Sequence record: OR896822.1
From: Salmonella phage vB_SenS-3
DNA: 64,000 bases
Strand: one strand, 5' to 3'
Below are positions 28,351 to 64,000 of the stretch, piece by piece (the first letter of the stretch is position 1; every line of letters starts with the position of its first letter). The notes under the pieces were generated by a model. It had not been told where the DNA came from. It was given only the letters and a program-made list of their open reading frames with translations, and did not search any database. The position numbers and the translations under genes were made by a program.

Positions 28351-28355
28351 AATTC

Positions 28356-28766: not shown

Positions 28767-28782
28767 TTAACTCATGATGAAA

Positions 28783-29024: not shown

Positions 29025-29045
29025 AACAACTAATAGGGAATATAA

Positions 29046-29362: not shown

Positions 29363-29687
29363 AATCTTGAAGTATGCCGGAATCGGTAGACGGGGCTTCC
29401 TAAAGGGCGTAAGGGGAACATCCACTCCTCATAAGATACCCGAAAACGAGGCTGAGATAACTGGTCTATCTCGTGAAGGTTCGAGTCCTTCTGCTTCTTG
29501 ATATTCATCAATGGCTCAAAGTGTAACGGTGCTATTTGATGCTCTTAGTAAGACTTTCCCGACATGCGTTCGGGAGTAAGCTGCTAAGGCTAGAGTAGAA
29601 GAGTTTCGGAGAGCCGCCACAATTGAAGTCTTTAGAATGGGTATCGCCCTTTAGCCCCTCCGAAAGGGATAACTAGAGATTTCAATT

Positions 29688-29764
29688 GTGGTTATATCAT
29701 AATTGGTTAATGATCCTGATTGTGAATCAGGCCTATGTGGATTCGAATTCCACTAACCACCCCA
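29688..29764 (+). tRNA. tRNA-His (anticodon GTG)
   Basis: Acceptor GTGGTTA/TAACCAC, anticodon arm CCTGA TTGTGAA TCAGG, T-arm GTGGA TTCGAAT TCCAC, CCA. Confidence 0.7.
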
Positions 29765-29770
29765 AATATT

Positions 29771-29845
29771 GCGTCCTTATTTCAATGGAAAGAATGTAAA
29801 GCTACGAACTTTACGATCGGGGTTCGATTCCCTGAGGATGCACCA
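29771..29845 (+). tRNA. tRNA-Arg (anticodon ACG)
   Basis: Anticodon arm GTAAAG CTACGAA CTTTAC, T-loop TTCGATT, CCA. Confidence 0.65.
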
Positions 29846-29869
29846 ATTAACTTATACAGGAACTAAAAT

Positions 29870-30070
29870 ATGGCTGATTTCTGCAAAGAATGCTCTATCG
29901 ATATGTGGGGCAAAGATACTGGTGATCTTTCTGGTCTGATTACAGAAGCCGAAGTTAAAGAAGGCTATGGTGCTGTTGTAATCTGTGAAGGTTGTGGTAT
30001 TATTCGTGTTGACCATAATGGTAAACGTCTAGAAGAACCAGATCCAATTGCCACGGTTCCTGTAGAATAA
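29870..30070 (+). CDS. hypothetical Cys-containing protein
   Basis: 66 aa; CKEC...CEGC pairs. Confidence 0.4.
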   Translation: MADFCKECSIDMWGKDTGDLSGLITEAEVKEGYGAVVICEGCGIIRVDHNGKRLEEPDPIATVPVE

Positions 30071-30077
30071 AAATTAT

Positions 30078-30153
30078 TGGGATGTAGATCAATTGGCAGA
30101 TCGTCGGCCTCTGACTCCGAAGGTTCCACGTTCGATCCGTGGCATCCCAGCCA
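30078..30153 (+). tRNA. tRNA-Gln (anticodon CTG)
   Basis: 5' U start, D-stem GATC/GATC, anticodon loop CTCTGAC, T-arm CCACG TTCGATC CGTGG, CCA. Confidence 0.65.
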
Positions 30154-30159
30154 AACAAT

Positions 30160-30235
30160 TGGAGAGTAGTGTAACGGTTAGCACAACGGCCTTTGACTCC
30201 GTTAATGGTAGGTTCGATTCCTCCTTCTCCAGCCA
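30160..30235 (+). tRNA. tRNA-Gln (anticodon TTG)
   Basis: Acceptor TGGAGAG/TTCTCCA, anticodon loop CTTTGAC, T-loop TTCGATT, CCA. Confidence 0.6.
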
Positions 30236-30241
30236 ATTTAT

Positions 30242-30316
30242 GCGTGATTAGTTCAGTGGCTAGAATAACTGGCTTCCAACCAGTAGACACGAGTTCGACT
30301 CTCGTATCCCGCACCA
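30242..30316 (+). tRNA. tRNA-Gly (anticodon TCC)
   Basis: Anticodon arm ACTGG CTTCCAA CCAGT, T-arm ACGAG TTCGACT CTCGT, acceptor 6/7, CCA. Confidence 0.65.
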
Positions 30317-30332
30317 AATATAAGGAAACGTT

Positions 30333-30554
30333 ATGGACGTTTTTGAGTTTCGTAATAAAAACCCCAATAGACGAGTTTTAATTATTGGTGAAACATATAG
30401 AGCTTATGAGCAAGAAGATGGTTCGGTTTTATTAAATGATGAAAAACAAGGCTATAGCTTTCATCCAGAAGAAACATATGAAGAATTTCGTACTAAGTTT
30501 CTTTTACCAGACTGGCTAGCAATAGCTGAGCAAAGAGAATCCAAAGATGGCTGA
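30333..30554 (+). CDS. hypothetical protein
   Basis: 73-aa ORF after tRNA-Gly. Confidence 0.4.
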   Translation: MDVFEFRNKNPNRRVLIIGETYRAYEQEDGSVLLNDEKQGYSFHPEETYEEFRTKFLLPDWLAIAEQRESKDG

Positions 30555-30711
30555 TAATCTAAAGCTAAAAGTAGATAAACGAATGAAGTGCGTTGAGGTT
30601 GAGTTGGGTGAAGAACGTTTAAAACTCTCCTTCGAATTCTTACAGCAGTTGGCTATGACAGTAATGTCTGATAAGTCTCCTGTATTTGAAAAAGAAATCC
30701 CGTTGAAATAA
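30547..30711 (+). CDS. hypothetical small protein
   Basis: 54-codon ORF overlapping previous stop; followed by CCCGTTGAAATAACGGG hairpin. Confidence 0.25.
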   Translation: MADNLKLKVDKRMKCVEVELGEERLKLSFEFLQQLAMTVMSDKSPVFEKEIPLK

Positions 30712-30720
30712 CGGGTTTAT
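30698..30720 (+). terminator. hairpin terminator candidate
   Basis: CCCGTT GAAATA ACGGG followed by TTTATT. Confidence 0.5.
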
Positions 30721-30721
30721 T

Positions 30722-30796
30722 GCTCCTAAAGCATTGCTGGCGATGCAGTTGCCTTGTAAGCATCTGAACCGGGTTCGATTCCTGGTGGGAGCACCA
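30722..30796 (+). tRNA. tRNA-Thr (anticodon TGT)
   Basis: Acceptor GCTCCTA/TGGGAGC, anticodon loop CTTGTAA, T-arm CCGGG TTCGATT CCTGG, CCA. Confidence 0.6.
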
Positions 30797-30811
30797 AATT
30801 TAAAAATTCAT

Positions 30812-30840
30812 TTGCCTTCTCTCTTATTTCTTGTTATAAT
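30812..30840 (+). promoter_or_regulatory. early-type promoter (TTGCCT N17 TATAAT)
   Basis: Same architecture. Confidence 0.5.
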
Positions 30841-30870
30841 ATTTATATAAATTAATGAGAGGGAAACCAA

Positions 30871-31164
30871 ATGAAACGTTATCTTTCTGTCGTATTCCAA
30901 ACGGGTGGTCAACGCTACACTTATGAATTTCCTGAGTCCTGGAAAATTAAAGAAGGTGATCAAGTTGTTGTATTAACACCTCGTGAAGGCTTCAAAGTAG
31001 TAACGGTTAAACAAGTATTTCCAAAAGATCACGAACCATCTAAGTCTATTCAGTACAAGATGATTCATGGTCTAGTTCGTAAAGTACCACGAACTGAGGT
31101 AGAAGTAGATAAGACTGGTGAAGCTAAATACCAGTATACTTCTTACTTAGACGAGTTGTTATAA
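30871..31164 (+). CDS. hypothetical protein
   Basis: 97 aa; promoter at 30812. Confidence 0.45.
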   Translation: MKRYLSVVFQTGGQRYTYEFPESWKIKEGDQVVVLTPREGFKVVTVKQVFPKDHEPSKSIQYKMIHGLVRKVPRTEVEVDKTGEAKYQYTSYLDELL

Positions 31165-31370
31165 TGAGAATTACTTTCACAGAAAAGATTATGGGCAATG
31201 GTGTTATGATCATTACCGCATGGGATGGTAATCAGTGGTGTAGTGTTTCAGGTATTAAGCCTGAAGAACAAACACTAGAAAATATCTCAAAGATTAAGCG
31301 AAGAATGGCAGAACGTGCACGACTTCCAGGTGCTCCTAGAAATGGTAAACGTTCTGCAATTAAATGTTAA
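31164..31370 (+). CDS. hypothetical protein
   Basis: 68 aa, ATGA overlap with previous gene. Confidence 0.4.
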   Translation: MRITFTEKIMGNGVMIITAWDGNQWCSVSGIKPEEQTLENISKIKRRMAERARLPGAPRNGKRSAIKC

Positions 31371-31371
31371 T

Positions 31372-31448
31372 GCTTCGGTAGCTTAGCGATCTAAAGCACT
31401 CGGCTGATAACCGAGAGATCGGGGGTTTAAATCCCTCCCGGAGTACCA
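31372..31448 (+). tRNA. tRNA-Ile (anticodon GAT)
   Basis: Anticodon arm CTCGG CTGATAA CCGAG, T-loop TTTAAAT, acceptor with G-U pairs, CCA. Confidence 0.6.
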
Positions 31449-31544
31449 AATTTAGGAAGTAAGACTATGCGTCCAGGAAAGTTTAAAAAAGCTAATTGGT
31501 CTAAAGAGTATAAAGAATACTTACTTAGTCTAGTAAAACATAAT

Positions 31545-31617
31545 AGTTAGTTGGCAGAGAGGTTATGCACCTCCTTCATACGGAGCGCCTACAGTGGTTC
31601 AAATCCACTACTAACTA
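31545..31617 (+). tRNA. tRNA with anticodon CAT (third CAT tRNA), CCA not encoded
   Basis: Acceptor AGTTAGT/ACTAACT, anticodon loop TTCATAC, T-arm AGTGG TTCAAAT CCACT. Confidence 0.45.
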
Positions 31618-31984
31618 CTAAACAGAGGATCAGATCATTGTACCAGATCCTGCTGAGAAGAGAGTCCACATTCTATAAATGGCCGGGCGTGACAGCAGGA
31701 AGTAGACTGCAACTCCATGCTATACAGGAGTATAAATGTAGAAGCTAGGGCTTTAGATAGCCATTGTCTTAGCGTGAGCAATCACGTAGTTGCAACAGAC
31801 CAGGGGATAGCAACGTTAAAATCAAAGCTCCTGTGCTTATTAAACTGAATGGGACTATCAATCCACAAGCCGGACTACGAGCGATTATCGGGTATTCACT
31901 TAATAAGCAAGCCTGCCTTCCAGTTTTTATCTTGCTTCTGGGTTAACAAAAAGCTGAGCCAAATTCTAGCATCAGGGAGATCTA

Positions 31985-49829: not shown

Positions 49830-50445
49830 GGAGATTGCTATCGGATTTGCACATTATGTTTCTAGAAATTTATGGTCGGATTTGCACAATTGCCTAAGTT
49901 TTTAGGAACATATAATCTCCCGAAAATAGCAGCATTATTTCGGGCCGAAGGCCCATGATTGCCTGAGTTTTTAGAGCCACAGGAATTTTCACTTGTCAAG
50001 CTATTTTGCCCCATTTTGCTAATAAAATTTCGCTTTATCTCCCCCAATCTCAATTCTAGCCAAAACATCCCGCATTATCCCCAAAAACGCAGCAAACCGG
50101 TGCTAAAGCACCATCACCGCTGCTCCTTCCGTAGTTACTCCCAAAATCTCATCGGATTCGCACTTCTCCCCAAACCCACACAATCACACACCCTCCAATC
50201 GAAGTCACAAAAATCTTGTCGGATTCGCACACCTTAACACTTGTCGGTTTTGCACATATTCTAGTAAATCCAGCTGGATTGCATCGCAGTTGCGGATTGC
50301 TAGAGTTTTTAGGAAAATTCATTGTCGGATTCGCACACTATAAAAATATTTGCCATCGGATTTGCACACTACCAAAAATTGTCGGATTCGCACATGCACG
50401 CTGGCACGTAATCCGTGGGGGCAAATGTCGGATTTGCACAAAAGC
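49830..50445. repeat. iteron array: about 9-10 copies of TCGGATT(C/T)GCACA plus TTTCTAGGAG-like and GGCGGTTA repeats
   Basis: Copies near 49843, 49876, 50146, 50220, 50245, 50326, 50353, 50379, 50428; motif resembles a degenerate DnaA box (ATTTGCACA). Confidence 0.8.
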
Positions 50446-50464
50446 GCAGGGCAAATAGAAAATG

Positions 50465-50640
50465 CCCTGCCTGCCGAAATGCGAATGATAATGAGATTGA
50501 TTCGCATTTGAGAAGTTGAATGCGAATGATAATGATTCGCGTTTAGAAAGGGGAATGAGAATGGTTATCCTTTACAGAGTTGAATGCGAATGAGTTGCGT
50601 AATGAGAATGATTCGCATTTAGAAAGGGAAGTGAGAAACA
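50465..50640. repeat. cluster of GAATGCGAATGA / ATTCGCATT inverted and direct repeats
   Basis: At least four TGAATGCGAATGA-like units alternating with ATTCGCATTT/ATTCGCGTTT. Confidence 0.75.
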
Positions 50641-50652
50641 CTATTATTTAAG

Positions 50653-50661
50653 TTATCCACA
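50653..50661 (+). promoter_or_regulatory. consensus DnaA box TTATCCACA
   Basis: Exact 9-mer; TTATCAACA variants follow at 50715-50740. Confidence 0.5.
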
Positions 50662-50742
50662 GGTTTATTAACAGCACGATCTGACTTGACAAAATCCTAG
50701 TGATTTTGAGGCGTTATCAACAGACTTATCAACAGGTTATTC

Positions 50743-50762
50743 TACTGTATATTTATACAGTA
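50743..50762. repeat. 20-bp perfect palindrome TACTGTATATTTATACAGTA (core also at 54516)
   Basis: Self-complementary; CTGTATATTTATACAG core recurs at 54516-54531. Confidence 0.8.
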
Positions 50763-50792
50763 TTACTGCGTAGTGAATAACTCTAATATAGC

Positions 50793-50822
50793 TCTAAAAC
50801 GCTCTGTAACTCATTCTAAGCG
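50793..50822 (+). repeat. 30-bp direct repeat copy A (TCTAAAACGCTCTGTAACTCATTCTAAGCG)
   Basis: 29/30 identical to 54942-54971, same orientation. Confidence 0.8.
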
Positions 50823-50907
50823 ATTTAATTTTGGAGGAGGTATTTTAATAGGGGGAATTTGAGGAAGGCCAGAAAAAGCGGGGCCAGATAGTTGCACCCC
50901 GTTATTA

Positions 50908-51102
50908 TTAGTCTGGTAGTCGATGTGTGATCTTTTCGCTTTCGCCGTAGGAGTCTACCAAATGTTGATAGTAACCATCGTTATCATAAATCACTTTATC
51001 ATAATCGCCACGCTCCACCGCTTGCCGATTTTCCAGCGTATCAGGCACAAAGAAAGTATCAACGGTAACAGTAGTTTTAGTTACAACAATTTTATCACTC
51101 AT
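50908..51102 (-). CDS. hypothetical protein
   Basis: 64-aa ORF, minus-strand block. Confidence 0.3.
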   Translation of the reverse strand: MSDKIVVTKTTVTVDTFFVPDTLENRQAVERGDYDKVIYDNDGYYQHLVDSYGESEKITHRLPD

Positions 51103-51232
51103 AACGCCATCGCTCCTAGAATGAGAATGATTATCAATATCATTGTAAAGCCATTACCAAATCGTAAACGCTGGGAATGTTTCCCAGCGGTATTATTAGA
51201 TTTATGGCTTTGTGTTTTTCGCCACCAGCTAT

Positions 51233-51445
51233 TCACGGTTTTAAATTCTCTATAGTTAATTTTGCGCGAATAGTGATTCCATATAATTCGCCTCCCTTGT
51301 TTCTTACATCAGGTAGCCAGTCCCACAATTCAGGGTATCCGCTTAAAATTCCTAGCGATGCAAGATTAGCAATAAAACCGGCTATAGTAACCGCTTCCAG
51401 TGAAATAGTTACACGATTATTAATAACTAAAGTAAACTTTTTCAT
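51233..51445 (-). CDS. hypothetical protein
   Basis: 70-aa ORF, minus-strand block. Confidence 0.35.
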   Translation of the reverse strand: MKKFTLVINNRVTISLEAVTIAGFIANLASLGILSGYPELWDWLPDVRNKGGELYGITIRAKLTIENLKP

Positions 51446-51786
51446 TGCGCCACCTTTCGAAACGCTGTTTCGATACTTTCAGCGGTTGATTGAATATACG
51501 CGCCTTTCATAATCAGGCGCTCTGTACACACTTTGCGGAAAATGTCAATAAATTCATTTTCATTTTCCGCTATTAACGCTTCCCCCATAACCTGAACGTC
51601 ACAAGACCCAAAAGTTAAAAATTGAAATGCTAGTTCACGGGCGACAACGGCAGAAATTTTATAATGTGCTTTGCCCTCATAGATATTAACCACGCCTTTA
51701 TAAACTGGTGAAAGCTGATTTAAATAGTTTGCTAATAATGCCGGACGGCAATTAGTAATAAAGCGATTGCCCTCATAAATTACCAT
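51442..51786 (-). CDS. hypothetical protein
   Basis: 114-aa ORF, ATGA-type overlap with downstream ORF. Confidence 0.4.
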   Translation of the reverse strand: MVIYEGNRFITNCRPALLANYLNQLSPVYKGVVNIYEGKAHYKISAVVARELAFQFLTFGSCDVQVMGEALIAENENEFIDIFRKVCTERLIMKGAYIQSTAESIETAFRKVAQ

Positions 51787-51909
51787 CTGCCAACCTCCCT
51801 AGCAAATAGCCAAAACAAATCGAATAAACGCCTAACAGTGCAGGATCACTTTTAAAGTAGGTAGCAATAAAGCCACCAGCAGCACCGAGCAAAATAGAAA
51901 ATAAAGTTT

Positions 51910-52122
51910 TCATAATACCCCACGAAACGCAGCGTAAAAGGTGGCAAAGTGTTTAACCGTTTCGGCTACCAAATTGCCGCGCTTGTCAAATTTCTTTTCT
52001 GTAACACGGAAAGCGTTTTTGTTGCGTGCTACATATTCGATTTTACAATCTGGACGCTCGAACGTGTTAACATCCACCAGCTTAAAACCTTTGGAACGGG
52101 CAAGGGAAACATTCTTTAACAT
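51910..52122 (-). CDS. hypothetical protein
   Basis: 70-aa ORF. Confidence 0.35.
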   Translation of the reverse strand: MLKNVSLARSKGFKLVDVNTFERPDCKIEYVARNKNAFRVTEKKFDKRGNLVAETVKHFATFYAAFRGVL

Positions 52123-52124
52123 TT

Positions 52125-52274
52125 TTATTCCCCTTTACCAGTCATACAGCCTAACAAGTAAGAAAACCCCGCGATACCTGCTCCGATAATAACCACGTGA
52201 ACGCCGAAAGCTATTACAAACAGCGATAAAATAGCGCCCAAGATACTAGCCAGAATAGATCGAAAAATAACCAT
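52125..52274 (-). CDS. hypothetical small membrane protein
   Basis: 49-codon ORF with AGGAGG RBS; hydrophobic; below ORF-track cutoff. Confidence 0.3.
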   Translation of the reverse strand: MVIFRSILASILGAILSLFVIAFGVHVVIIGAGIAGFSYLLGCMTGKGE

Positions 52275-52381
52275 TTTAACGCCTCCTAGAAATTAGGGAA
52301 AATTTTCAGTCCACCGTTTCGGTGTAAAGGCATTATAACAAAAAAGGCCGCCGATTAGGGCGACCTTTACAAAACTTTACA

Positions 52382-52876
52382 TTAGACTATTTCTAGTGCT
52401 TCCACGCCGAAACAGCGTTTTAATTCTTTCTGTAAAACGGCATATTCATCCCAACGGGAATTATCAGGAATATAAACAAGCTGTTTTAGTCGATTTGCAT
52501 ATAATAACGCCTTGTTACCAATTATTTCCGCGCCACCGTGTTTAATAATTAGTTTCATAACGGTATTAATAGGATCGCCGCCATTTACATAAGTACCGGA
52601 CTTACTCAATTGATAATGATAAAGACTCGCATATACATTATCATTTTCAATCCATTCCCCTGTTTCTTCATCTTCTTCCCCATCGCTACCGAAACGAGAA
52701 GCATTATCATATGCGTGTTCGTTTGCGAAAGCGTCCAGATCACAGCCAGCGGGAACAAAATGTTCCTCCGTCCAGCCTTCCCCACAATAGCCAGTGTGAC
52801 AATCAACTAAAACGATCATATCGTGTTTAGCTTCATTCACACTTTCTAGAGAAAAGCCATATTTTTCTTCTGACAT
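52382..52876 (-). CDS. hypothetical acidic protein
   Basis: 164 aa with Asp/Glu-rich stretch SDGEEDEETGEWIEND. Confidence 0.45.
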   Translation of the reverse strand: MSEEKYGFSLESVNEAKHDMIVLVDCHTGYCGEGWTEEHFVPAGCDLDAFANEHAYDNASRFGSDGEEDEETGEWIENDNVYASLYHYQLSKSGTYVNGGDPINTVMKLIIKHGGAEIIGNKALLYANRLKQLVYIPDNSRWDEYAVLQKELKRCFGVEALEIV

Positions 52877-52889
52877 AACTAGACTCCTA

Positions 52890-53198
52890 TTAATTAGCAG
52901 GGAAATAAAGAGAATTTGCTACACTGTAAAATCCTTTATTTAAGAAAATTACGTCATCACGGACTATTTCATCCATTCCATAATCCAGCAAAGTTTCGTC
53001 TACAAAAATACATAGCCAGCCATAACCACGATCAAAGAAAGCATGATAATTATTAGCGCTTTCTACATGTTCCCATAAAAAGGGACGGCCTTGTTTTTCC
53101 CATATAGGAATATTGCTTTGATCGTCCGAATAATTAACATGGGGGCTATTCGGCATTTTTTCGGCTAATTGCGTCAACATGATTTGATTCAGTTGCAT
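52890..53198 (-). CDS. hypothetical protein
   Basis: 102-aa ORF. Confidence 0.45.
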   Translation of the reverse strand: MQLNQIMLTQLAEKMPNSPHVNYSDDQSNIPIWEKQGRPFLWEHVESANNYHAFFDRGYGWLCIFVDETLLDYGMDEIVRDDVIFLNKGFYSVANSLYFPAN

Positions 53199-53264
53199 AA
53201 TAAGTAGTCTCCTAACAATTAACAGGGAAATAGTAAAGCGGGAAATAATCCCCGCTAGTAATTA

Positions 53265-54266
53265 TTACTCTGTTTCGGCGCTTTGGGTAAAGGTAGAAAT
53301 GTCAATGCCTTTTACCATTTCATCGATCATTTCAGCAATATTGAAACTCTGTACCATTTCCAGCATTGCCGCTTCCATTGCCGCGCCTGCTACCGCTTTC
53401 GCTTTCGCATTAGTCGGGGCGTACTGGTCAACCGCTACGCTTAACAGGTTAGCGATCACTACGCGACCGATCGGCGTATCGATATAACCTTTAATCATAA
53501 ACGGCGCTTTTTTCGCCGCTACTTTTGTGATTTGAGTCAGTGCAATTTTACCCGCTTCCAATTTAGCAGCGTTAACAACGGCGGATTTATTAGCGGCAAC
53601 GATAGAAGATACTTTAGACATAATATTTCCTTTATTTTCAGTAGTTTGCGCATTTGCGCTTGAAGTTTGAGATTGTACAGCCTGTTTTGTTACATTGTCA
53701 AGCGATTTTAATGTAAATCCAGCGTTTGCAACGTTTGATTCATTCCCATACTCTAAATAATCGTTAGGAATCAACATGTTACCGCTAGCGCGTTCAAAAC
53801 ACAATACGCCAGTTGTTTCGATTGCGTCACTATCCGCACCTTTATAACTGGATGATAATTCACGCCAGATACTATTTAATAACGATCCGACACTATCCAG
53901 TCTGATATTATTTACTTTTGTTGCTGTTACCTGCTCTTTTTCTTGCACGTTATATAATCGCGCAATGTAACCACTATGAGACTCACTATAACCAACAATG
54001 ATAAAATCAATATCAGTTCCCCGACTATTACGGAAAATGTGATAATCACGGTTGAAAATTACTAGCGCCCTTGTCTGGTCTAGTAATAGCGTGAAATCAT
54101 CGACTGAATAATGAGTATCATTATTATCTAAAATTTCATCGTGAATCTTTTCAACCATTGCCGCCGTATGTTGTACGCTTGCCACACTACTACCATCTAG
54201 CAGGTTGCGCAAACTACCCTTAATAATAGTGGCGTTTGCTGGTACTGCAATTCTTACAGTAGACAT
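53265..54266 (-). CDS. hypothetical protein
   Basis: 333-aa ORF, first gene of minus-strand block, Ala/Lys-rich C-terminal half. Confidence 0.5.
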   Translation of the reverse strand: MSTVRIAVPANATIIKGSLRNLLDGSSVASVQHTAAMVEKIHDEILDNNDTHYSVDDFTLLLDQTRALVIFNRDYHIFRNSRGTDIDFIIVGYSESHSGYIARLYNVQEKEQVTATKVNNIRLDSVGSLLNSIWRELSSSYKGADSDAIETTGVLCFERASGNMLIPNDYLEYGNESNVANAGFTLKSLDNVTKQAVQSQTSSANAQTTENKGNIMSKVSSIVAANKSAVVNAAKLEAGKIALTQITKVAAKKAPFMIKGYIDTPIGRVVIANLLSVAVDQYAPTNAKAKAVAGAAMEAAMLEMVQSFNIAEMIDEMVKGIDISTFTQSAETE

Positions 54267-54515
54267 TTCTTTGTCTCCCTCGTTAATCGGTGAGTGAATG
54301 ATATAGATAATTGTTCGCTAGGGGCAAGAAAAAAGAAAAGGTTTTTTATTCCTTGCCTACTGCCCGTTTTTATGATAATCGCGCGTTTTCTATTTCTAGC
54401 TCTCTGTAAGCGTACACAAGGCTTTATTATAATAAGGGTAGCAGTGAGAAAACGCCGTGTAGCGCGTTCTAGGCCGCTTAAATTTGATTGCGGTTGTTAC
54501 TGCTACCATTCTACC

Positions 54516-54531
54516 CTGTATATTTATACAG
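54516..54531. repeat. palindrome core CTGTATATTTATACAG (second copy)
   Basis: Identical core to 50745-50760. Confidence 0.8.
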
Positions 54532-54553
54532 TAGGATAACCTGTATATAAGTC

Positions 54554-54611
54554 TGTGGATAAGTCACCAAAACGTCGCCTATTGCGTCAAGTTATTTTGT
54601 GCTGTGGATAA
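54554..54611 (-). promoter_or_regulatory. two DnaA boxes in minus orientation (TGTGGATAA at 54554 and 54603)
   Basis: Reverse complements of TTATCCACA; a third AGTGGATAA at 54888. Confidence 0.5.
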
Positions 54612-54941
54612 CTTTGTGCATAACCTAAATGATAGTGGTTCTCACTTAGCCCGATAGTTTCTCATAGTTATTATTTCTCATTAATTTATGTGTATATTAT
54701 ATATTATGAAATAGTTAGTTGGCTAATAGATTTTTAGGGTATTAATAGTCTGCTAACTGTTTCGGCTGTTACAATCCACCAGCGTGATTATCGTCCTAGC
54801 GATTATTAGTCTGCTAATGCTCTGATGCACGTCCAGACTTATTTGTCAATGAAAAATAACAGCAGAAAATACTTTTTTGAAAAATCAAGTGGATAACTCA
54901 TTAAATTTCATTTTTGCTTTTTGTATAAGTTATTAACAGGG

Positions 54942-54971
54942 TCTAAAACGCTCTGTAACGCATTCTAAGCG
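54942..54971 (+). repeat. 30-bp direct repeat copy B (TCTAAAACGCTCTGTAACGCATTCTAAGCG)
   Basis: 29/30 identical to 50793-50822. Confidence 0.8.
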
Positions 54972-55316
54972 CCTCAAAGGAAAAGATAGGCAATCATAAG
55001 GGGTACACCGAGAAAACCTCACCACGAGGATTTTAGATTTTGTCAAGTACCCTAGAGCAGATATAAATGAAAAAATTACTTGCTAAAATGGTTGTTTTGG
55101 TGTTATTCGCGCGCCCGTTTCATTAAATTTAATGCGCCGCTGGACGTTTGCGAGTAGTGGTTTTCTTTACGTTTCTTTACAAAAATACGCTTGCGCCCTT
55201 CTCGGTATTCTCCTATTATTTATCACGTAGGGCGGCAATGACGAACTACACGGCGGGGATAACAGCGATTGACAGTCTGTTTGACCTTTCAAAACCCTGC
55301 CATGCTCTTTAAAAAT

Positions 55317-55342
55317 TAGGGAACATCTTAAAGCCTATCGGC
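55317..55342. repeat. 26-bp inverted repeat, left arm
   Basis: TAGGGAACATCTTAAAGCCTATCGGC; partner at 55593-55618 (25/26 complementary). Confidence 0.75.
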
Positions 55343-55374
55343 GGTAAACTTAGATATTATAAGGAATCGACGAT

Positions 55375-55584
55375 ATGAAACAAACGCTTTTGATCACTGG
55401 CAAGCCTATCAAGTCGCTTGATAGCAGAACAAAAAATTTGTTGACAGTAGCGCAACGATCTGTAAAATACAGATTCAAGCAATACAAGAAAGGCAAGCAA
55501 CAAGGGCTGGAAATGGTGTGGCGTAATATAATGATTGATTTATATAACTCCCATCAAATCGAAAAAAGTTTAAAAAACGATTGA
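55375..55584 (+). CDS. hypothetical small basic protein enclosed by 26-bp inverted repeats
   Basis: 69-aa ORF, GGAATCGACGAT then ATG; flanked by IR arms. Confidence 0.3.
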   Translation: MKQTLLITGKPIKSLDSRTKNLLTVAQRSVKYRFKQYKKGKQQGLEMVWRNIMIDLYNSHQIEKSLKND

Positions 55585-55592
55585 CACGCTAG

Positions 55593-55618
55593 CCGATAGG
55601 TTTTAAGATGTTCCCTAG
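55593..55618. repeat. 26-bp inverted repeat, right arm
   Basis: GCCGATAGGTTTTAAGATGTTCCCTA. Confidence 0.75.
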
Positions 55619-55815
55619 TTTTTAAATAGTGATAACTTGATAAAATTTGACGGTCGGCACTTACCATAATGTGCCTCGCCCCCTAACTGGGATATAGCGG
55701 CCCGCGCGGAGTTCTTTAAATTTATTATATTGGCGAGCGGATTATAATCTAATAGCGTTTCAAAGTATCGAGGCGCTATTGTGGAATAATCCCACAATAA
55801 ACCGGAGTATTAAAA

Positions 55816-56067
55816 ATGCAAAACGTTATCACCGCACCGAAAGTAGGTCAATCCGTTTTTATTCCTTTCGTTACTAAAACGGATGAATTAACTGGAAAAG
55901 CTGAACGTATTAAAGGTGCGGCGCTTGATCCCTTTGATAAAATTGAAGCGGTATACGCGGAAACGGAACGCAGTAACAACGGCAAGCCAATTTATAACGT
56001 TCGCGTTAAATCTGGCGACGTTGTAAAAATCATTCAGAAAGATGATAAATGGCAAGCTATTAGCTAA
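55816..56067 (+). CDS. hypothetical protein
   Basis: 83-aa ORF with GGAG RBS. Confidence 0.4.
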   Translation: MQNVITAPKVGQSVFIPFVTKTDELTGKAERIKGAALDPFDKIEAVYAETERSNNGKPIYNVRVKSGDVVKIIQKDDKWQAIS

Positions 56068-56166
56068 TTAGTGTTACTTTTATATTCCCCTGAAATATGG
56101 GGAATATATGGATTAACATTAGTTAATCATAATCCCTTAATTAATAATTGAATGGAGTATTAAATT

Positions 56167-56583
56167 ATGTCTAACGTTAAAACCGAAAAAACCGCAAAAT
56201 TCGCTTGGAACGAAGAAAACACTGAAAAAGCTGTTTCTATGTATTCTGAAATGGTCGCTAAAAGCGGAATTGAATTTGCTAACAGTGACGGCCTGAAAGA
56301 AATTGCCGCCGCCGTTGGTGCTGCTAGTCCGGTGTCTGTACGTTCTAAACTGACAAGCGCAAAAGCCTATCAGAAAAGCGATAAACCTCGCAAAGTTGGC
56401 GGCGGTAGCTCAATTCGTAAAGCTCACTATGTGCGTGTTATTGCAAAACATGCCATCGACGCTGGCGTTATTAAAGACGCTGATGACTTGGCAAGCCTTG
56501 AAAGTGCTAAACTGGAAACACTGGACGCCGTAGCGCAATTATTAGGCGTAGCGGAGGAAGTAAAACAGGCCGCAGGTGAATAA
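56167..56583 (+). CDS. hypothetical protein
   Basis: 138-aa ORF, Ala-rich; hairpin AGCGGGG AATATT CCCCGCT follows. Confidence 0.45.
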   Translation: MSNVKTEKTAKFAWNEENTEKAVSMYSEMVAKSGIEFANSDGLKEIAAAVGAASPVSVRSKLTSAKAYQKSDKPRKVGGGSSIRKAHYVRVIAKHAIDAGVIKDADDLASLESAKLETLDAVAQLLGVAEEVKQAAGE

Positions 56584-56633
56584 ATTTTAATTAGCGGGGA
56601 ATATTCCCCGCTAACCCTTAAAGGAGAATAATC

Positions 56634-56861
56634 TTGATCTTTTATCCTAGCGAAGCGTTTATTTTAGGTTTATTTATTATTGCCGCTATATTTATATTTA
56701 ATTACGGCAAATATATAATTTCTATTATCGGCATTAATTCAGCTTATGCCGCTGATATGTTTAAACGTCAAGCTAATAAACAAAAATATCTGGCGATTAT
56801 ATTTTTAACGCTGGCTATTAGTTGCGGTTTTAGTTCTAGTCTTATGCCAATTCTAGAATAA
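56634..56861 (+). CDS. hypothetical membrane protein
   Basis: TTG start after AGGAG RBS; two TM helices. Confidence 0.3.
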   Translation: MIFYPSEAFILGLFIIAAIFIFNYGKYIISIIGINSAYAADMFKRQANKQKYLAIIFLTLAISCGFSSSLMPILE

Positions 56862-56969
56862 TATTGCAAATTATAACGCCTTTTAAATTGTCCTCACTTC
56901 AGGCAAGGCGTTATATTTGGCAATATTGCCAGTATTAATATTTATCCCTTTATAGGAGTTGATTTAGTT

Positions 56970-58634
56970 ATGAATATTTCCGCAGAAAAACAAGCTCAAA
57001 TTTTGAAAATGGCCGCTGATTTCAATTTCTACGGTAAGCGTTTACGCGCTACTAAGCTGGAAGTTTGCGACGATATTTCAAAAGCTGTTTATGATACGCC
57101 GAAACATTCAACCGCAATTTGTGACTGGCTGGAAGCAAACAAGCCAGCGAAACCGAAAGCGGCAAAAGCTGAAAAGGCGATTAAAAATGATGATCGCCCC
57201 GAGGCGGCGGGAATTGTTTCTAGCACCGTTGAGCAATGGGAAGTTAAATCCGGTCGCCGTTTTATTCTAACGTCGATTCAGAATAATACTTTCCCGCATA
57301 AAAACTTTTTAGCAAGTCTGGAAAAATTCGCTGAATATTGCGGCGCTGAATTACTTGTTAGCAAATTCATTTACAACAAAAACGGATTTCAGAACGGGGA
57401 AGGGGCAAACGGTATTAAATACGATCCCGCATTTGATAAATATGTTTGTGATAAAAACGTATTTTTAAATAACCGCCGCTTTGCCTTCATGGCTGAAATT
57501 AACGTTTTACCAACGGCAGATTATCCGCTTTCAGGATTCGCAGAAACCGCCACGGCTTTAAATATCGAAGGTCTGGCAATTGGTCACGCAAAAATTACCG
57601 CTGAAAGTGTTCCCGCGCTTAAAGGTGAAGTAGTGCGCCGTATGTATTCAACCGGAACGGCTACGCTTAAAAACTACATTCAGCAGAAAGCAGGACAAAA
57701 GGCCGAGGCTTTACATAACTACGGCGCTTTGCTGGTAGAATTTGACGACGGCGGAGAATTTTTCGTGCGCCAGCTTGAAACAATGGACGAAAGCGGAATG
57801 TTCTATGATCTGAATATTTGCGCCACTCCTAGCGGTTGCAAAGAAATTACCGGACACATTTTAGGCTTACAATATGGCGATATTCACGCCGAAAAATTAG
57901 ATGATGAATGCGCCGTCGCTTCATGGGCTAGTGAAAATTCATTGCTTGATATTCTTAAACCGAAATATCAGTTTATTCATGATGTGCATGATTTTACATC
58001 GCGTAACCATCACAACCGCGCTAGTGGTGTATTCCTTGCTAAACAGTACGCCGCAGGACGTGATAAAGTTATTGATGATCTCATTGATACCGGTCGCGTG
58101 TTGGAATCTATGGAACGTGAATTTAGTCAAACAATCATTGTGGAATCCAACCATGATTTAGCTCTTTCACGCTGGCTTGATGATCGTAACGCAAACATTA
58201 AGGACGATCCCGCAAACGCCGAGCTATATCACAGCCTAAACGCTGCGATTTACGCCGCAATTGCAAAACAAGATGATACCTTTAACGTATTGGATTACGC
58301 GCTTAGAAACGTTGCAGGTTGCGAATTTAACGCTATTTTCCTGACTACTGACCAGTCATTTAAAATCGCTGGCATTGAATGTGGCGTACATGGTCACAAC
58401 GGCATTAATGGCAGTCGGGGCAATCCTAAACAGTTTAAAAAGTTGGGACGCCTTAACACTGGTCACACTCACACGGCTAGCATATACGGCGGCGTTTATA
58501 CCGCTGGCGTGGCGGGGTCGCTTGATATGGGCTATAACGTGGGCGCGTCAAGCTGGACGCAAACGCATTTAATTACCTATGCAAACGGGCAACGTACTTT
58601 GATTGATTTCAAAAACGGTAAATTCTTTGCATAA
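56970..58634 (+). CDS. A1: pre-early A1-like protein (metallophosphoesterase domain)
   Basis: 554 aa; GDIHAE, HDVHD, GHNG, GHTH metallophosphatase motifs in C-terminal half; size matches T5 A1 as recalled. Confidence 0.65.
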   Translation: MNISAEKQAQILKMAADFNFYGKRLRATKLEVCDDISKAVYDTPKHSTAICDWLEANKPAKPKAAKAEKAIKNDDRPEAAGIVSSTVEQWEVKSGRRFILTSIQNNTFPHKNFLASLEKFAEYCGAELLVSKFIYNKNGFQNGEGANGIKYDPAFDKYVCDKNVFLNNRRFAFMAEINVLPTADYPLSGFAETATALNIEGLAIGHAKITAESVPALKGEVVRRMYSTGTATLKNYIQQKAGQKAEALHNYGALLVEFDDGGEFFVRQLETMDESGMFYDLNICATPSGCKEITGHILGLQYGDIHAEKLDDECAVASWASENSLLDILKPKYQFIHDVHDFTSRNHHNRASGVFLAKQYAAGRDKVIDDLIDTGRVLESMEREFSQTIIVESNHDLALSRWLDDRNANIKDDPANAELYHSLNAAIYAAIAKQDDTFNVLDYALRNVAGCEFNAIFLTTDQSFKIAGIECGVHGHNGINGSRGNPKQFKKLGRLNTGHTHTASIYGGVYTAGVAGSLDMGYNVGASSWTQTHLITYANGQRTLIDFKNGKFFA

Positions 58635-58686
58635 TTAAATTTAATCGGCGGTTGAAATATACCGCCATTAATAAAAGGTTTATTAA

Positions 58687-58965
58687 ATGGCTAGTAAAAT
58701 TAATATATCTATCCCTGATAGCAATTGTTTAGAAGATATTGCATGGTCTGAAATGTCTTTTGATAGTTGCGTTTATTTAGTTACCCGTGGAATGTACGCG
58801 GGAATGTACGCCGTATGGGATAGTAATATTGGCGAAAATATGATCTTTTTCGGAAAAGATTCTATTCAGGTAATGACAGGCGATTACCTTAATCAAGAAA
58901 GGAAAGACGGCGACGAAACATATTTTCGTAAAACTGATTTATCTTTAAATGTATTTTTTCAATAA
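58687..58965 (+). CDS. hypothetical protein
   Basis: 92-aa ORF. Confidence 0.4.
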   Translation: MASKINISIPDSNCLEDIAWSEMSFDSCVYLVTRGMYAGMYAVWDSNIGENMIFFGKDSIQVMTGDYLNQERKDGDETYFRKTDLSLNVFFQ

Positions 58966-58997
58966 ATCCCGTAATTAAATAATCTGGAGTCATAAAC

Positions 58998-59390
58998 ATG
59001 AAAAACCAAAACATTCCTTTTGATCGTGCTACTTCTTCCATCGTTCTAGTTTATTCTAATGGCGAACGTTATCACGTCGAAGCGGGGCAAGTTAATTTCG
59101 ATTTGCTGAATTATAACGACGCTTTGCAGGTTACTACCTTTGCTTATGATACCGGCAAAGTGGCAAGCCATACGAAAGCAAAAGGCGTTTACGCTGATAC
59201 TTTGACAGTGCAAACAATCATTATTGATGCGCTTAAATCCGGTCTAGCGTTTGCGGTTGTTAAGCCGTGTCCGGTCTGCAATCCCGAAGCTAGCGCAATG
59301 GTTTATACTTGCGCGGGTATCCGTTCTAGCGTACATGGTGAAGATCTTTCCTTTATCGGTGACGCGCTAGCGTATGGCCTCACTAACTAA
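58998..59390 (+). CDS. hypothetical protein (possible A2-like pre-early protein)
   Basis: 130 aa adjacent to A1-like gene; assignment by position and size only. Confidence 0.35.
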   Translation: MKNQNIPFDRATSSIVLVYSNGERYHVEAGQVNFDLLNYNDALQVTTFAYDTGKVASHTKAKGVYADTLTVQTIIIDALKSGLAFAVVKPCPVCNPEASAMVYTCAGIRSSVHGEDLSFIGDALAYGLTN

Positions 59391-59477
59391 TAGTTAATTG
59401 AACATTGCCAGCTAATCTAATATAATTAGCTGGCAAGATTGAATTAACCTAAATCCCTTAAATGGAGAATGTAACAA

Positions 59478-60212
59478 ATGAATCAAGTCAACATGAATAT
59501 TACCCGCACTTTCTCGCATATTTCCCGCGTTATGATTTGGGATTTAGACGGGACAATCATTAATTCATTCCATCGTGTAGCGCCTTGCTTTGATGATAAC
59601 GGGAATTTAGATTTAAATAAGTATTCCCGCGAAGCCTGCAAACATGAATTAATTATGCAGGATTCCTTATTACCATTGGTTGAATATATGCGCCAATGTA
59701 TGAATGATCCCAATACCTTAAACCTTATTTGTACCGCTCGCTTAATGGGTAAATCTGATTATTATTTCTTGCGTAAACAAAGTCTAAGAGGACGCGGAAA
59801 TAGTAATATTCGCGTATTTTCCCGCGATACTTTGCATAAATACTTTGAAGCGGATAAGGTTAGCGAAATATACCACAGCAAAGATGCTGTATATAAATCT
59901 TATTACTTTGAACTGTTTAAACAGCTATATCCTAACGCTGATTTTACGATGATTGATGATCATAAAGGTGTATTATCGGCGGCGGCAAGTGCTGGATTTA
60001 AAACGCTGGACGCTCAAGCCGTTAATGATATCCTATCAATCGGCGTAACATTGATCGGTGAAACCTTTATTGATGAATCACTTGATGATGATAACGATTA
60101 TCAATTCCTAGCCGAACGTTTAAAAATGTGTTGGGAAGGTATGACCGAGGAAGAACGAGCGGAATATAGTACCACACCGCAACAATTCATTGATAAATTA
60201 AAAGTCGCGTAA
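59478..60212 (+). CDS. dmp: 5'-deoxyribonucleotidase (HAD-like), dmp-like
   Basis: 244 aa; N-terminal WDLDGT HAD motif I; size matches T5 dmp as recalled. Confidence 0.65.
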   Translation: MNQVNMNITRTFSHISRVMIWDLDGTIINSFHRVAPCFDDNGNLDLNKYSREACKHELIMQDSLLPLVEYMRQCMNDPNTLNLICTARLMGKSDYYFLRKQSLRGRGNSNIRVFSRDTLHKYFEADKVSEIYHSKDAVYKSYYFELFKQLYPNADFTMIDDHKGVLSAAASAGFKTLDAQAVNDILSIGVTLIGETFIDESLDDDNDYQFLAERLKMCWEGMTEEERAEYSTTPQQFIDKLKVA

Positions 60213-60375
60213 TAATTAAAAATAAAATAGTCACACTGTGTTATCATCACATAGTGTGACTATTAGCTTGCTAAGTACCGGGGCGGTAATGAGACTCATT
60301 CTCATCTAGGGAACCTCTGGGCACACCTTCATGTGTAATCTTATGAAATTTCGAGAATTGGTAATTAGCGCTAAC

Positions 60376-60621
60376 TTAGGAAGAACACCGGTCTACTGGC
60401 TTGTCTCCTGATTCTGACATACGAAATCTCCTCCGCGACGCCCGAGATCCATCAGACCATTCTCGCTCAAACTCCGCACGTTTCTCCGCAAACCTCCGCT
60501 CTCTTTCCGAAAGCTCCCGCGATACTCCCGCAATATATTCACGATGCTTATTAATCGCCCCGAGTGTTCCGAAGATTCCCGCAAGTACCCCGATAATGAA
60601 GATAGCTACAAAGCTAAACAT
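60376..60621 (-). CDS. hypothetical membrane protein
   Basis: 81 aa, N-terminal TM, Arg/Glu-rich tail. Confidence 0.35.
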   Translation of the reverse strand: MFSFVAIFIIGVLAGIFGTLGAINKHREYIAGVSRELSERERRFAEKRAEFEREWSDGSRASRRRFRMSESGDKPVDRCSS

Positions 60622-60808
60622 CTAATTCCCTCTCAAGTTGGTGAATACGTGCCCGATCATTACGTTGGGAGTCCAGTAACTTATCCATATTAATGTTTAG
60701 TTGGGTGACTTTATCCTCTAGCCGCTGTATACGATTACGATGTGACGTCATATATCCAACAATCCAGACAAGCCATACTACAAGTGTAATAAGTCCTAGC
60801 CAATCCAT
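60614..60808 (-). CDS. hypothetical membrane protein
   Basis: 64 aa, N-terminal TM then coiled coil. Confidence 0.35.
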   Translation of the reverse strand: MDWLGLITLVVWLVWIVGYMTSHRNRIQRLEDKVTQLNINMDKLLDSQRNDRARIHQLERELDV

Positions 60809-61376
60809 TATTTATCTCCCCGCAGCTTACGTTCGATATGAGCTAAGTGGTTATCTAAAATGCACTGCCCGATAATTACCACAACTAGTAAAGCAATAAT
60901 TACTACTTCCATTATAACCACCCCGCCATAGCTGCTAACCAAAAGAGTACAAAGATAAAGAATAACACAGTCCCGAATCCGAAACTATTTATCCAACTTT
61001 CGTACACTTCCCCGCGTCTGTTCTTTCTTCTGTTGTCGCCTGACATCTCTTTGCTTCTCCTGTAAGTCCGGTATTTGGAATACCCTAGCAAATTGCACGA
61101 ACCATTATGACTGTCCCGATAAGATCCATTACTTCGTCGAAGCCGGATTCTTCTAGTAAGAAGGATGTTCCCATCACGTCTTCTATTGTATCTTCTATGA
61201 CGTCTTGAATGATTTCATCAATTGCATCATGTATTGCTTTTTAGTCCTGGGATCTATTTCAAAGTTAACAGGTTCCTGAAAGGACTTTTCTTCATCTTGC
61301 ATTGTGTTTGCTACCTGTACCTCATCCCAGAAATAAAAATTTTTGTTTACTTCGAGATCTTTTTACTTTATACTAA

Positions 61377-61643
61377 TTACAAGTGACCAGATTGTTCTAG
61401 TTTAAATTTGCAATCGCCATATTTGAGATCAAACTGTGACAGATCCCACCACCCAAACTTAGTGCGTAACTGAGTTTTAGGGAATCGATAGCCCACAGTA
61501 CGTGCTTCTCGAATATCTAAAGCATAGTGTTCTTCACCAACATGACCATAAGACTTCACGTATGCCTTACAGAACGGCTTAGGAGCTGGTACACAACCAG
61601 TCAACACTACTGCTGCAACTACGATAGCTAGTAACTTTTTCAT
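61377..61643 (-). CDS. lipoprotein, candidate lytic-conversion / receptor-blocking protein (Llp-like)
   Basis: Signal peptide with lipobox LTGC; divergent from and adjacent to the receptor-binding-like gene. Confidence 0.45.
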   Translation of the reverse strand: MKKLLAIVVAAVVLTGCVPAPKPFCKAYVKSYGHVGEEHYALDIREARTVGYRFPKTQLRTKFGWWDLSQFDLKYGDCKFKLEQSGHL

Positions 61644-61726
61644 AATCGTTCCTCTGTTTAATTTATAAATATATTATAGCAAAATAGAGGGATCTAAGCA
61701 AATACATTTTTAAAGAAGGAGATTGT

Positions 61727-63508
61727 ATGAGTTTTTTCGCAGGAAAATTTAGTGATGGTAAAACTGTATTATCTCTAAACGCTGCTAATGGTGGTGATGT
61801 AAATCAGCACTACTCTCCAAATACTAATAGTATCTTCCACTCAGATATGCCATTTGTCCTAGTTGATGGGACTTACGAGGCTGCTCTAGGTGATGCAGGT
61901 AATGGGTATTTTGTTACTCAGATGCCTTGGGATATTATAAACATTAAATCCAATGATCCTGGTAGAGTTATATTAACTGCTATTGAGATAAATGGTACTC
62001 ATAGGGGTTTCCTTAATGGTACACAATCTCAGGTTGGCCAGTTCTTATCATTCTTTGAAGACCAACCACGTGCTGGTGCTGAATTATCTGTAACATCTGC
62101 TTTTGCGATCGGTGATAGTTTAGCTCATGGTACCTATATCTATAATGGTGGTCTTGGCCATGAGGAATCTATTGCTCGGCAAGGTTCTGGAGGCAGTTTA
62201 CTACAGTCCTCTGGTTTCCAGATCTTTAGACCTGGTGGTGTTTCTGCTGGTGAAGCCATTGCCAGAGCCTGGAGTCTTATGGGTTTTCCAACTGGTGTCT
62301 CTACTGTTCCTTTAGATGGTGGTAACGCAGATTATTGGGAACCTAACTGGCAGGCGCCTGTTGGTTCTGCGGGTAGAGGCCATGATTGGTTTTATGTTTG
62401 TAGTTCTAATATTCGTGGCTTCGCAGGTAAAAAAGGCGTACTACCAGATAACGTAAACGTTCTTTACCAATCTCCTGCATATCCAGAAAAAATATATGTT
62501 TGTAGAGGTTCTACTTCTAATATGGCTGCTCAGTCCGCTAGAAAGGTATATGTACAGGACTGGTATAATGTTACGCCAACTAAGGTTATTTGGTATGTGC
62601 TAAATCTGCGCTATTCTAATGGTAGTATGGGAGTTTCTGGTAATCCATTTACCGGTTCAGATATCCTAATATCTCCATCTAACTTTACTATTAAAGGGGT
62701 TAGTTTACCAAATACAGGATATAAATTCATTAACCAGAATGCCTTTGGAAACTTAGGCTATCGCCCTGATATGGAGTATGTTGGTAATAATGCTGCGTAT
62801 ACCGGAGTTTTTGGTGATAATACTGCACGATGTGAATTTATCGGCTCTAGTAATGGTGGGTTGTGGTCGCCCGTTAACTACGGGGGTGCAGCTTCTCAAA
62901 TTAGCTTATATAAATTTGGTGTAGGTAAACAATGGTATGTAGATACTAATACCAACTCCATTGGTAATGAACATGGACCTGTGTGGAGTCCTAGTACTGT
63001 ACCACTCAGGTTATTCCCAGGCAACGTTGCAAGTACTTATGTAGGGGACGATATAACTCCATCCTACCCTGGTGCTGGTGACTTCTACACACCTTTGGCC
63101 ACAGTTTGGTTGGGATTACCGAATGCTCACTCTACTGTTATATTAACTACTGAAGTTATTATGGGTAATCTTAATACTGCTGGAATGCCTGTGCGTACTT
63201 ACGGCGGTAGCGCTTGGCAGGTACAAGGTAGACGTCAACAAAGTTATACAGCTGGTGATGGTGTATTCCATCAGATTCTTACTCTGCCACCTGGATATCT
63301 AGTACCTTATCACAGTACAACTTCCTATAGTTATACACAAACTTGGGCTAGTAGGCCTGATGAGTTTGCTTTCCGTAGGAACGGATATATTTATACTATT
63401 AAAAACCTTGGTAATGGCAACGTTGAGTTGGGTGTTATCATTCACGCTGCAGAAGCGGCAGCTGTTTTCTTGCCAAGACTACGTGTAACAGTTCAACGCC
63501 TAACCTAA
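61727..63508 (+). CDS. tail receptor-binding protein candidate (pb5/Oad-like)
   Basis: 593 aa, Gly/Asn/Thr/Ser-rich, no enzymatic motifs; adjacent divergent lipoprotein as in T5 llp-oad arrangement. Confidence 0.45.
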
Positions 63509-63528
63509 AGGAGGATATATGGCAAATG

Positions 63529-64000
63529 ATGTATTAGTTCCCGATCTCATGTCTCCCGAAGGCATGGATGTTATTGAAGCCTATTTACAGTGTGGTAGTG
63601 ATATTCCTGCCGCTGCTCGTAGTCTTGGGATGTCCGAGATTGCATTCCGTGATATAATGAATCGTGGGGAAGTTAAAAACTATCTCAACGATATCTTTAT
63701 GGAAAGTGGCTTCCGTAATCGTGACCGCTTATTCGGAGTTCTTGATGAAGTTATCAAGCGCAAGTTGGAAGAACTCGAAGAAACTGGCATGGGTTCTGAC
63801 CAGGATATCATGGATATTCTCTGGAAGGCGCACAAGATGAAAATGGAAGAAATGAAAATGATGGTAGAACTGGAGAAAGTGAAGGCAGCAGCCCGTACTC
63901 CGGCTAACCAGACTAACATTCAGAATAATATTATTGCTGGAAGTGGTGACGAAAACTATATGAATCTTATTACCGCTCTAGCAGGAGGAGGTAAGAGATA
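63529..64000 (+). CDS. hypothetical protein, partial (runs off window end)
   Basis: ATG 63529 after AGGAGG RBS; no stop before window end; helix-turn-helix-like N-terminus. Confidence 0.4.

Follow-up and report, generated by a model that had tools for sequence, protein, structure and literature searches.

Organization of the Locus

In a stretch of 64,000 nucleotides from Salmonella phage vB_SenS-3 (sequence record OR896822.1), here called the window, a small lipoprotein gene (llp) lies head-to-head with the gene of a 593-amino-acid receptor-binding protein (RBP), the two start codons being 83 bp apart and pointing in opposite directions. Here, we model this gene pair as a host-recognition module directed at the outer-membrane vitamin-B12 transporter BtuB. 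Its two genes are the following.

61377..61643, minus strand: llp, 88-amino-acid lipoprotein of the BF23/BtuB type, predicted to block the receptor (superinfection exclusion); open reading frame (ORF), homology, PHROG 1119
61727..63508, plus strand: oad/hrs homologue, 593-amino-acid receptor-binding tail-tip protein (pb5 family, BtuB class by homology); ORF, homology, PHROG 4815

An earlier note on this DNA, made from the letters alone, had delimited both genes, read an LTGC lipobox in the smaller one and likened the arrangement to that of llp and oad (pb5) in phage T5. Both ORFs are real, with exactly these coordinates and in head-to-head orientation, the lipobox is present in the translation, and the synteny is identical to that of T5 and BF23. 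Chance can be dismissed for either ORF because the RBP matches PHROG 4815 ('receptor binding tail protein') over its full length (E=1e-282), the lipoprotein matches PHROG 1119 (E=1e-23), and the DNA of the locus matches 388 phage records, nearly all of them Salmonella or Escherichia T5-like phages. The annotations in these records read 'receptor binding tail protein' for the one gene and 'receptor-blocking protein' or 'Cor superinfection exclusion protein' for the other. Over 3 kb, DNA identity of the locus amounts to 99.8% with Salmonella phages S.Typ Adana and S.Ent 1-35-3. With Salmonella phage rokbiter, classified in Demerecviridae, Markadamsvirinae, Epseptimavirus, it is 99.2%. Based on this sequence similarity, we assign the window to an Epseptimavirus (T5-like) phage.

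The order of the terminase small subunit gene (terS), the RBP gene, the divergent llp, small membrane ORFs and the terminal repeat with dmp, A1 and A2 is common to rokbiter, T5, BF23 and DT57C. As in the pb5/Oad/Hrs family, the RBP gene is the last late gene before the terminal repeat, upstream of terS and divergent from llp. The location next to the pre-early block, as the note had put it, is approximately right: dmp and llp are separated by an interval of about 1.2 kb that is filled by four small membrane ORFs and one ORF that appears to be decayed.

The Receptor-Binding Protein

T5 pb5 matches the same PHROG profile as the 593-amino-acid protein, and BLASTP aligns the two with 29% identity (residues 1-593 against 1-640, E=4e-52), from the first residue (MSFFAGK...) to the last (...QRLT) of the window protein. 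In a sequence search of the Protein Data Bank (PDB), the only solved structures matched are the pb5 entries 8b14_B and 8a8c_B (E=7e-47). Pfam yields nothing above threshold for the RBP, only a spurious KOW match, and no NCBIfam family was found for it. From these alignments, the protein is a clear but diverged pb5 homologue. Resemblance to the T5 proteins had been denied for both genes; this does not hold for the 593-amino-acid protein, and it is correct for the lipoprotein at the sequence level. The adhesin identity stands, as the matches belong to the pb5/Hrs family and not to a non-adhesin structural protein. Of the description as rich in Gly, Asn and Thr, only the glycine part is apt (Gly 12.5%, Ser 8.6%), Asn (7.1%) and Thr (6.7%) being only moderate.

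Among the relatives, the RBP of S147 is 99.8% identical to that of the window, followed by TrudiRoth (Bas30; 99.0%, six substitutions), S132 (90%), BF23 Hrs (75%) and DT57C (66%). Identity drops to about 30% for RBPs of the FhuA, FepA and Klebsiella classes. In the EPS7 record (CP000917.1, L010 886..2573) the RBP region is unannotated and contains two ORFs (296 and 237 amino acids) in place of one gene for about 593 amino acids, which is probably due to a frameshift or a sequencing error in this older record.

Conservation is distributed unevenly along the protein. Together with the ribosome-binding site, the segments concerned are listed below.

61716..61721, plus strand: ribosome-binding site AAGGAG of the RBP gene, 5 nt before the ATG (read from the sequence)
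61727..61846, plus strand: conserved N-terminal part of the RBP, about 40 residues, common to all receptor classes (sliding-window identity)
62024..62566, plus strand: class-specific and most divergent part of the RBP, residues ~100-280 (sliding-window identity)

The first ~40 residues show 52-85% identity in all classes, including T5, Shivani and Klebsiella phage Riker, and presumably form the part by which the protein is attached to the virion. Residues ~100-280 are nearly unalignable with T5 pb5 (8-22% identity) and are likely to comprise the receptor-contact part. Variation within the BtuB class itself is highest at residues 140-260 and 420-500. In pb5, the loop tips that touch the FhuA plug carry Gln115 and Phe170 (PMC9586334); these align to residues 114 and 170 of the window RBP, within the divergent block, and the region corresponding to pb5 loop L4 (residues 570-590) has a 12-residue deletion. 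Such a pattern is what would be expected of a conserved scaffold presenting a different receptor-contact surface.

The Predicted Receptor

The window RBP clusters by sequence with the BtuB-specific class of BF23 Hrs type, for which genetic evidence is available from several relatives. Plating of TrudiRoth is lost on a btuB mutant and regained upon complementation (Maffei et al. 2021, PMC8594841, S9 Fig), S147 is cited as targeting BtuB (PMC12639943), BF23 and DT57C use BtuB as receptor (Golomidova et al. 2016, PMC4728585), and transposon mutants with complementation identified BtuB as the receptor of Yersinia phage phiR2-01 (PMC8624392). More broadly, nearly all Markadamsvirinae target BtuB, the few exceptions including T5 (FhuA) and H8 (FepA) (PMC8594841). 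Because the window RBP is 99-99.8% identical to RBPs of phages reported to be BtuB-dependent, we predict with high confidence that the receptor of the window phage is BtuB and not FhuA. The suggestion of the earlier note that the host receptor may differ from that of T5 is borne out by this homology. By analogy with the interaction of T5 pb5 and FhuA (PMC9586334), and in line with the genetics of the relatives, the RBP would bind this TonB-dependent transporter of the outer membrane irreversibly and thereby trigger DNA ejection.

The Lipoprotein and Its Expression Signals

The divergent gene encodes a typical prolipoprotein and is preceded by its own expression signals.

61593..61643, minus strand: signal peptide (residues 1-16) and lipobox Cys17 (L-T-G-C), read from the translation
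61649..61654, minus strand: llp ribosome-binding site GAGGAA (read from the sequence)
61673..61701, minus strand: predicted llp promoter, with -35 TTGCTT (61701..61696), a 17-nt spacer and extended -10 TGcTATAAT (-10 hexamer 61678..61673)

The 88-amino-acid protein begins MKKLLAIVVAAVVLTGC (= MKKLLAIVVAAVVLTGCVPAPKPFCK), with a KK pair, a hydrophobic core and the lipobox L-T-G-C ending in Cys17. Pfam LPAM_1 scores 18.6 bits, just under its cut-off of 20, and no Pfam family matches above threshold. A valine occupies position +2 after the cysteine, which under the Lol rule predicts sorting to the outer membrane.

The protein is 100% identical to the 'receptor-blocking protein' of rokbiter, 98.9% identical to its counterparts in S132, SuperGirl and many other phages, and 69% identical to BF23 Llp over 88 of 88 residues (E=1e-48). 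In a database of 5.8 billion sequences the family forms a compact group of 11 clusters (60-98% identity), and it is also present in the BtuB-dependent phage phiR2-01. An alignment of 13 family members has 25 invariant positions, among them Cys17, Cys25 and Cys78, and all 25 are present in the window protein. Expression of DT57C llp, described as one amino acid different from BF23 llp, reduced the plating of BF23 and of DT57C-group phages more than 100-fold and left T5 unaffected (Golomidova et al. 2016, PMC4728585). We regard the window lipoprotein as a BF23-type Llp and predict that it excludes BtuB-dependent T5-like phages.

One distant relative of the BF23-type Llps was found among 1.84 billion representative sequences, a metagenomic protein of 86 amino acids (P0013) with a borderline score (E=6e-4). 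Its lipobox reads LAGC, a PICTAS motif is present, and a further cysteine lies in a C-terminal GTCEK; the cysteine layout is that of the window Llp family. Identity to T5-like Llps is about 31%, PHROG 1119 is matched at E=1e-11, and the protein was not found in the phage collection.

llp is predicted to be transcribed divergently from its own sigma-70-type promoter, as both hexamers align exactly on the annotated -35 and -10 elements of BF23 llp and fall within the T5 promoter feature. The promoter was found only through this alignment with the annotated BF23 and T5 promoters. A generic promoter and terminator scan gave no site in the 83-bp intergenic region, and promoter-like sites were no more frequent than in shuffled sequence; the scan missed the llp promoter because its -35 element matches at only three of six positions.

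Proposed Mechanism and Alternatives

We consider it very likely that the locus is the BtuB version of the host-recognition module of T5-like phages, in which an RBP of the pb5/Hrs family is paired with a divergently encoded, BtuB-inactivating lipoprotein that works, by analogy, in the manner of T5 Llp. The product of the late RBP gene would be located at the tip of the straight tail fibre, and its irreversible binding to BtuB would commit the phage to DNA ejection. Early transcription from its own promoter would yield the 88-amino-acid prolipoprotein, which would be exported, receive its lipid on Cys17 and, given the Val at +2, be sorted to the outer membrane. From the inner leaflet of this membrane it would bind the periplasmic face or the plug of BtuB, analogous to T5 Llp and FhuA, and the bound lipoprotein would switch or close the extracellular loops of BtuB over the RBP site so that the RBP cannot bind. 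For T5 Llp, the loops of FhuA acted upon are EL7 and EL8 (PMC9586334). The pay-off would be that the infected cell is protected from superinfection and that progeny phages are not lost on receptors in the debris of lysed cells, as described in PMC4728585. Whereas the gene identities, homologies, synteny and conserved promoter were computed here, BtuB dependence and exclusion are taken from relatives, and we infer the jamming of the plug and a Cys25-Cys78 disulfide.

Several observations weigh against this interpretation. The experiments on BtuB dependence and on exclusion by Llp were done on close relatives and not on the window phage itself, and the window Llp allele is only 69% identical to the alleles tested (BF23/DT57C). 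Mismatched pairs of RBP and Llp types have been published (Cit2, S124; PMC12980165), and because such pairs exist, a neighbouring Llp alone is no proof of the receptor. The remaining points concern the relationship to T5 Llp and to Cor. BLASTP aligns the window lipoprotein with T5 Llp in residues 1-28 only, i.e., the signal peptide (E=0.018), and hhalign of a profile built from 13 Llp family sequences against T5 Llp is likewise restricted to residues 1-29. The NCBIfam Cor equivalog NF047972 reaches 13.5 bits where the cut-off is 31, the lipoprotein having only sub-threshold NCBIfam matches. A profile search of the 1.84 billion representatives retrieved the own family, one borderline lipoprotein and two spurious long proteins, and did not reach T5 Llp or Cor. 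Sequence homology between the mature domains of the window lipoprotein and T5 Llp/Cor was thus not found, and the lipoprotein is not assigned to the T5-Llp/Cor family. In favour of a relationship, PHROG 1119 ('Cor superinfection exclusion protein') is matched over the full length by T5 Llp (1e-19), BF23 Llp (2e-26) and the window protein. The 'Cor' label on RefSeq relatives derives from the name of this PHROG cluster.

A structural hint also speaks for a relationship to T5 Llp. In T5 Llp, a disulfide between Cys11 and Cys58 ties the termini together (PMC9586334), and it has been described as required for the interaction with FhuA (2026 preprint). The mature Cys9 and Cys62 of the window lipoprotein (Cys25 and Cys78 of the precursor), invariant in the family, sit where Cys11 and Cys58 do in T5 Llp, and may be joined by a disulfide in the same way. 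The AlphaFold2 model of the lipoprotein has a mean predicted local distance difference test score of 83; Foldseek against the PDB gave no significant match, and searching PDB sequences with the lipoprotein yielded no match even at E=10. We put at about even the prospect that the BtuB-type Llps, although they have been called non-homologous, share the T5 Llp fold (a small beta-barrel) together with the disulfide staple between N- and C-terminus, and that they obstruct the plug of BtuB from the periplasmic side through reverse allostery as in T5 Llp. It is improbable, though the most serious of the alternatives, that the lipoprotein blocks BtuB in another way than by periplasmic plug binding and reverse allostery, either by occluding the RBP site in a surface-exposed position or by affecting the biogenesis or stability of BtuB.

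We regard it as very improbable that the 593-amino-acid protein, for all its similarity to Hrs, recognizes a different receptor from BtuB, be it FhuA, FepA or a Salmonella-specific protein. DT57C illustrates that RBPs of the BtuB class can diverge strongly in their N-terminal half (PMC4728585), and the window RBP carries the substitutions Q113P and T537I compared to TrudiRoth, both within regions that align to contact loops of pb5. Nevertheless, every tested member of the clade with at least 60% identity uses BtuB, even the most divergent one (DT57C), identity to the RBPs of TrudiRoth and S147 amounts to 99.0 and 99.8%, respectively, and the FhuA, FepA and Klebsiella classes remain far more distant. 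The lipoprotein as a lysis or other accessory protein (e.g., o-spanin-like) that merely lies beside the RBP gene and is no exclusion factor, a reading we rejected as scarcely credible, could draw on its shortness, on a proline-rich stretch after the lipidated cysteine (CVPAPKPF) and on a weak match of a distant relative to an Rz-like spanin PHROG (E=0.007), yet conflicts with its homology to BF23 Llp and the retention of all invariant family residues, with the specific exclusion of BF23-type phages upon expression of the near-identical DT57C allele (PMC4728585), with its own early-type promoter, conserved with T5 llp, and with its location outside a lysis cassette.

Comparison with Known Systems

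The BtuB-directed module proposed here has its closest characterized counterpart in hrs/llp of phage BF23 (Mondigler et al. 2006, GenBank DQ097178), which has the same divergent gene pair, the same llp promoter hexamers and the same flanking genes. Further counterparts occur in EPS7, SPC35, DT57C, S132/S147, TrudiRoth (Bas30) and phiR2-01. While the two window proteins are 99-100% identical to those of Epseptimavirus members, they share only 75% (RBP) and 69% (Llp) identity with BF23; the window thus carries the Epseptimavirus allele of Llp, whereas exclusion is known experimentally for the BF23/DT57C allele only. The oad (pb5)/llp pair of T5 is directed at FhuA (8b14, 8a8c, 8a60, 7qjf). The window module differs from it in the predicted receptor, in the unalignable residues ~100-280 and the deletion at the L4 counterpart of its RBP, and in a mature Llp without significant similarity. 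The FhuA-blocking Cor lipoproteins of phi80, N15, HK022 and T1 are likewise small outer-membrane lipoproteins that are encoded beside host-recognition genes and inactivate the TonB-dependent receptor used by the phage itself, but the window lipoprotein is not a Cor equivalog and is predicted to act on BtuB, not on FhuA.

Of the records in the phage collection, 397 contain an Llp of the window type and 398 an RBP at least 60% identical to that of the window, a further 136 having distant RBPs only; these numbers are totals and not a record-by-record pairing, and no strict linkage is asserted. The distribution of Llp identities is bimodal, with 191 records at 95-100%, 204 at 60-80% and one between, whereas RBP identities are continuous from 60 to 100%. 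This is consistent with the recombination between both genes that has been proposed for DT57C (PMC4728585). Two discrete Llp alleles in combination with mosaic RBPs suggest that recombination between or inside both genes is frequent. In Shivani, whose RBP is about 30% identical to that of the window (31% in the aligned part, 30% in the multiple alignment), no lipoprotein ORF lies beside the RBP gene. There (L006 1..1500), the first divergent gene is an acidic ORF of about 108 amino acids, behind which an HNH homing endonuclease is inserted. In some T5-like phages, llp is thus absent from this position.

The feature itself is already known, since proteins 100% (lipoprotein) and 99.8% (RBP) identical have been deposited and annotated, and the family has been characterized experimentally since 2006. 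Only the structural hint that connects the BtuB-type Llps with T5 Llp is mildly new. The practical value is modest: the assignment of BtuB as the terminal receptor is useful for considerations of host range, of the resistance route (loss of btuB) and of cocktail compatibility against Salmonella and E. coli. If the fold is indeed shared, the mechanism of T5 Llp and FhuA would extend to a second TonB-dependent transporter, and jamming of the plug would be a general strategy of ancient common origin against TonB-dependent receptors. In that case, the two Llp alleles (Epseptimavirus versus BF23 type, ~69% identical) could be tuned to different BtuB variants or hosts.

Neighbouring Genes and Other Features of the Window

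The module is flanked by the following elements.

63519..64000, plus strand: terminase small subunit gene terS, cut by the end of the window, directly 3' of the RBP gene as in T5 (rokbiter and T5 annotation)
60376..61046, minus strand: four small single-pass membrane ORFs (44, 34, 64 and 81 amino acids) in the interval between llp and the terminal repeat, homologues of T5.159-162 and BF23 Orf1-4
59478..60212 (dmp), 56970..58634 (A1) and A2: pre-early genes of the T5 terminal repeat, upstream in the window

The small membrane ORFs show 75% identity to T5.162 and 38% to T5.161, and the translation of BF23 Orf1 resembles the 44-amino-acid ORF. They always accompany the receptor module and are treated here as its context.

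The 285-bp 'gap' downstream of llp contains, at 61085..61302 (minus strand), the remnants of an acidic ORF of about 105 amino acids. An intact form of this ORF occurs in Shivani, EPS7, SuperGirl and most relatives, and at least 80% of it is spanned in one piece in 170 of 237 records. In the window it is split over two frames, with residues 1-22 in one frame, ~21-71 in the -1 frame and 72-105 in the first frame again. The frame change begins at an ACT AAA AAG run near 61244..61236; rokbiter has the same sequence at the A-run, and TrudiRoth and KKP_3831 have the first shift only. Gene decay is the most likely explanation, the rival being slippage at the A-run.

The terminal repeat occurs once in the window (~50000..61700), where it joins both genome ends, such that early genes and tRNA cluster are followed by A2/A1/dmp and then by llp, the RBP gene and terS. 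A single terminal repeat resembles circularly assembled or permuted records, e.g., S147 and RA40.

The window also contains 28 tRNA genes at 17645..31618. One of these (17646..17717, plus strand) has the anticodon TCA and would read UGA. ARAGORN labels it SeC, yet it matches the generic tRNA model (RF00005, 33 bits), and it is possibly a tRNA of the opal-suppressor type.

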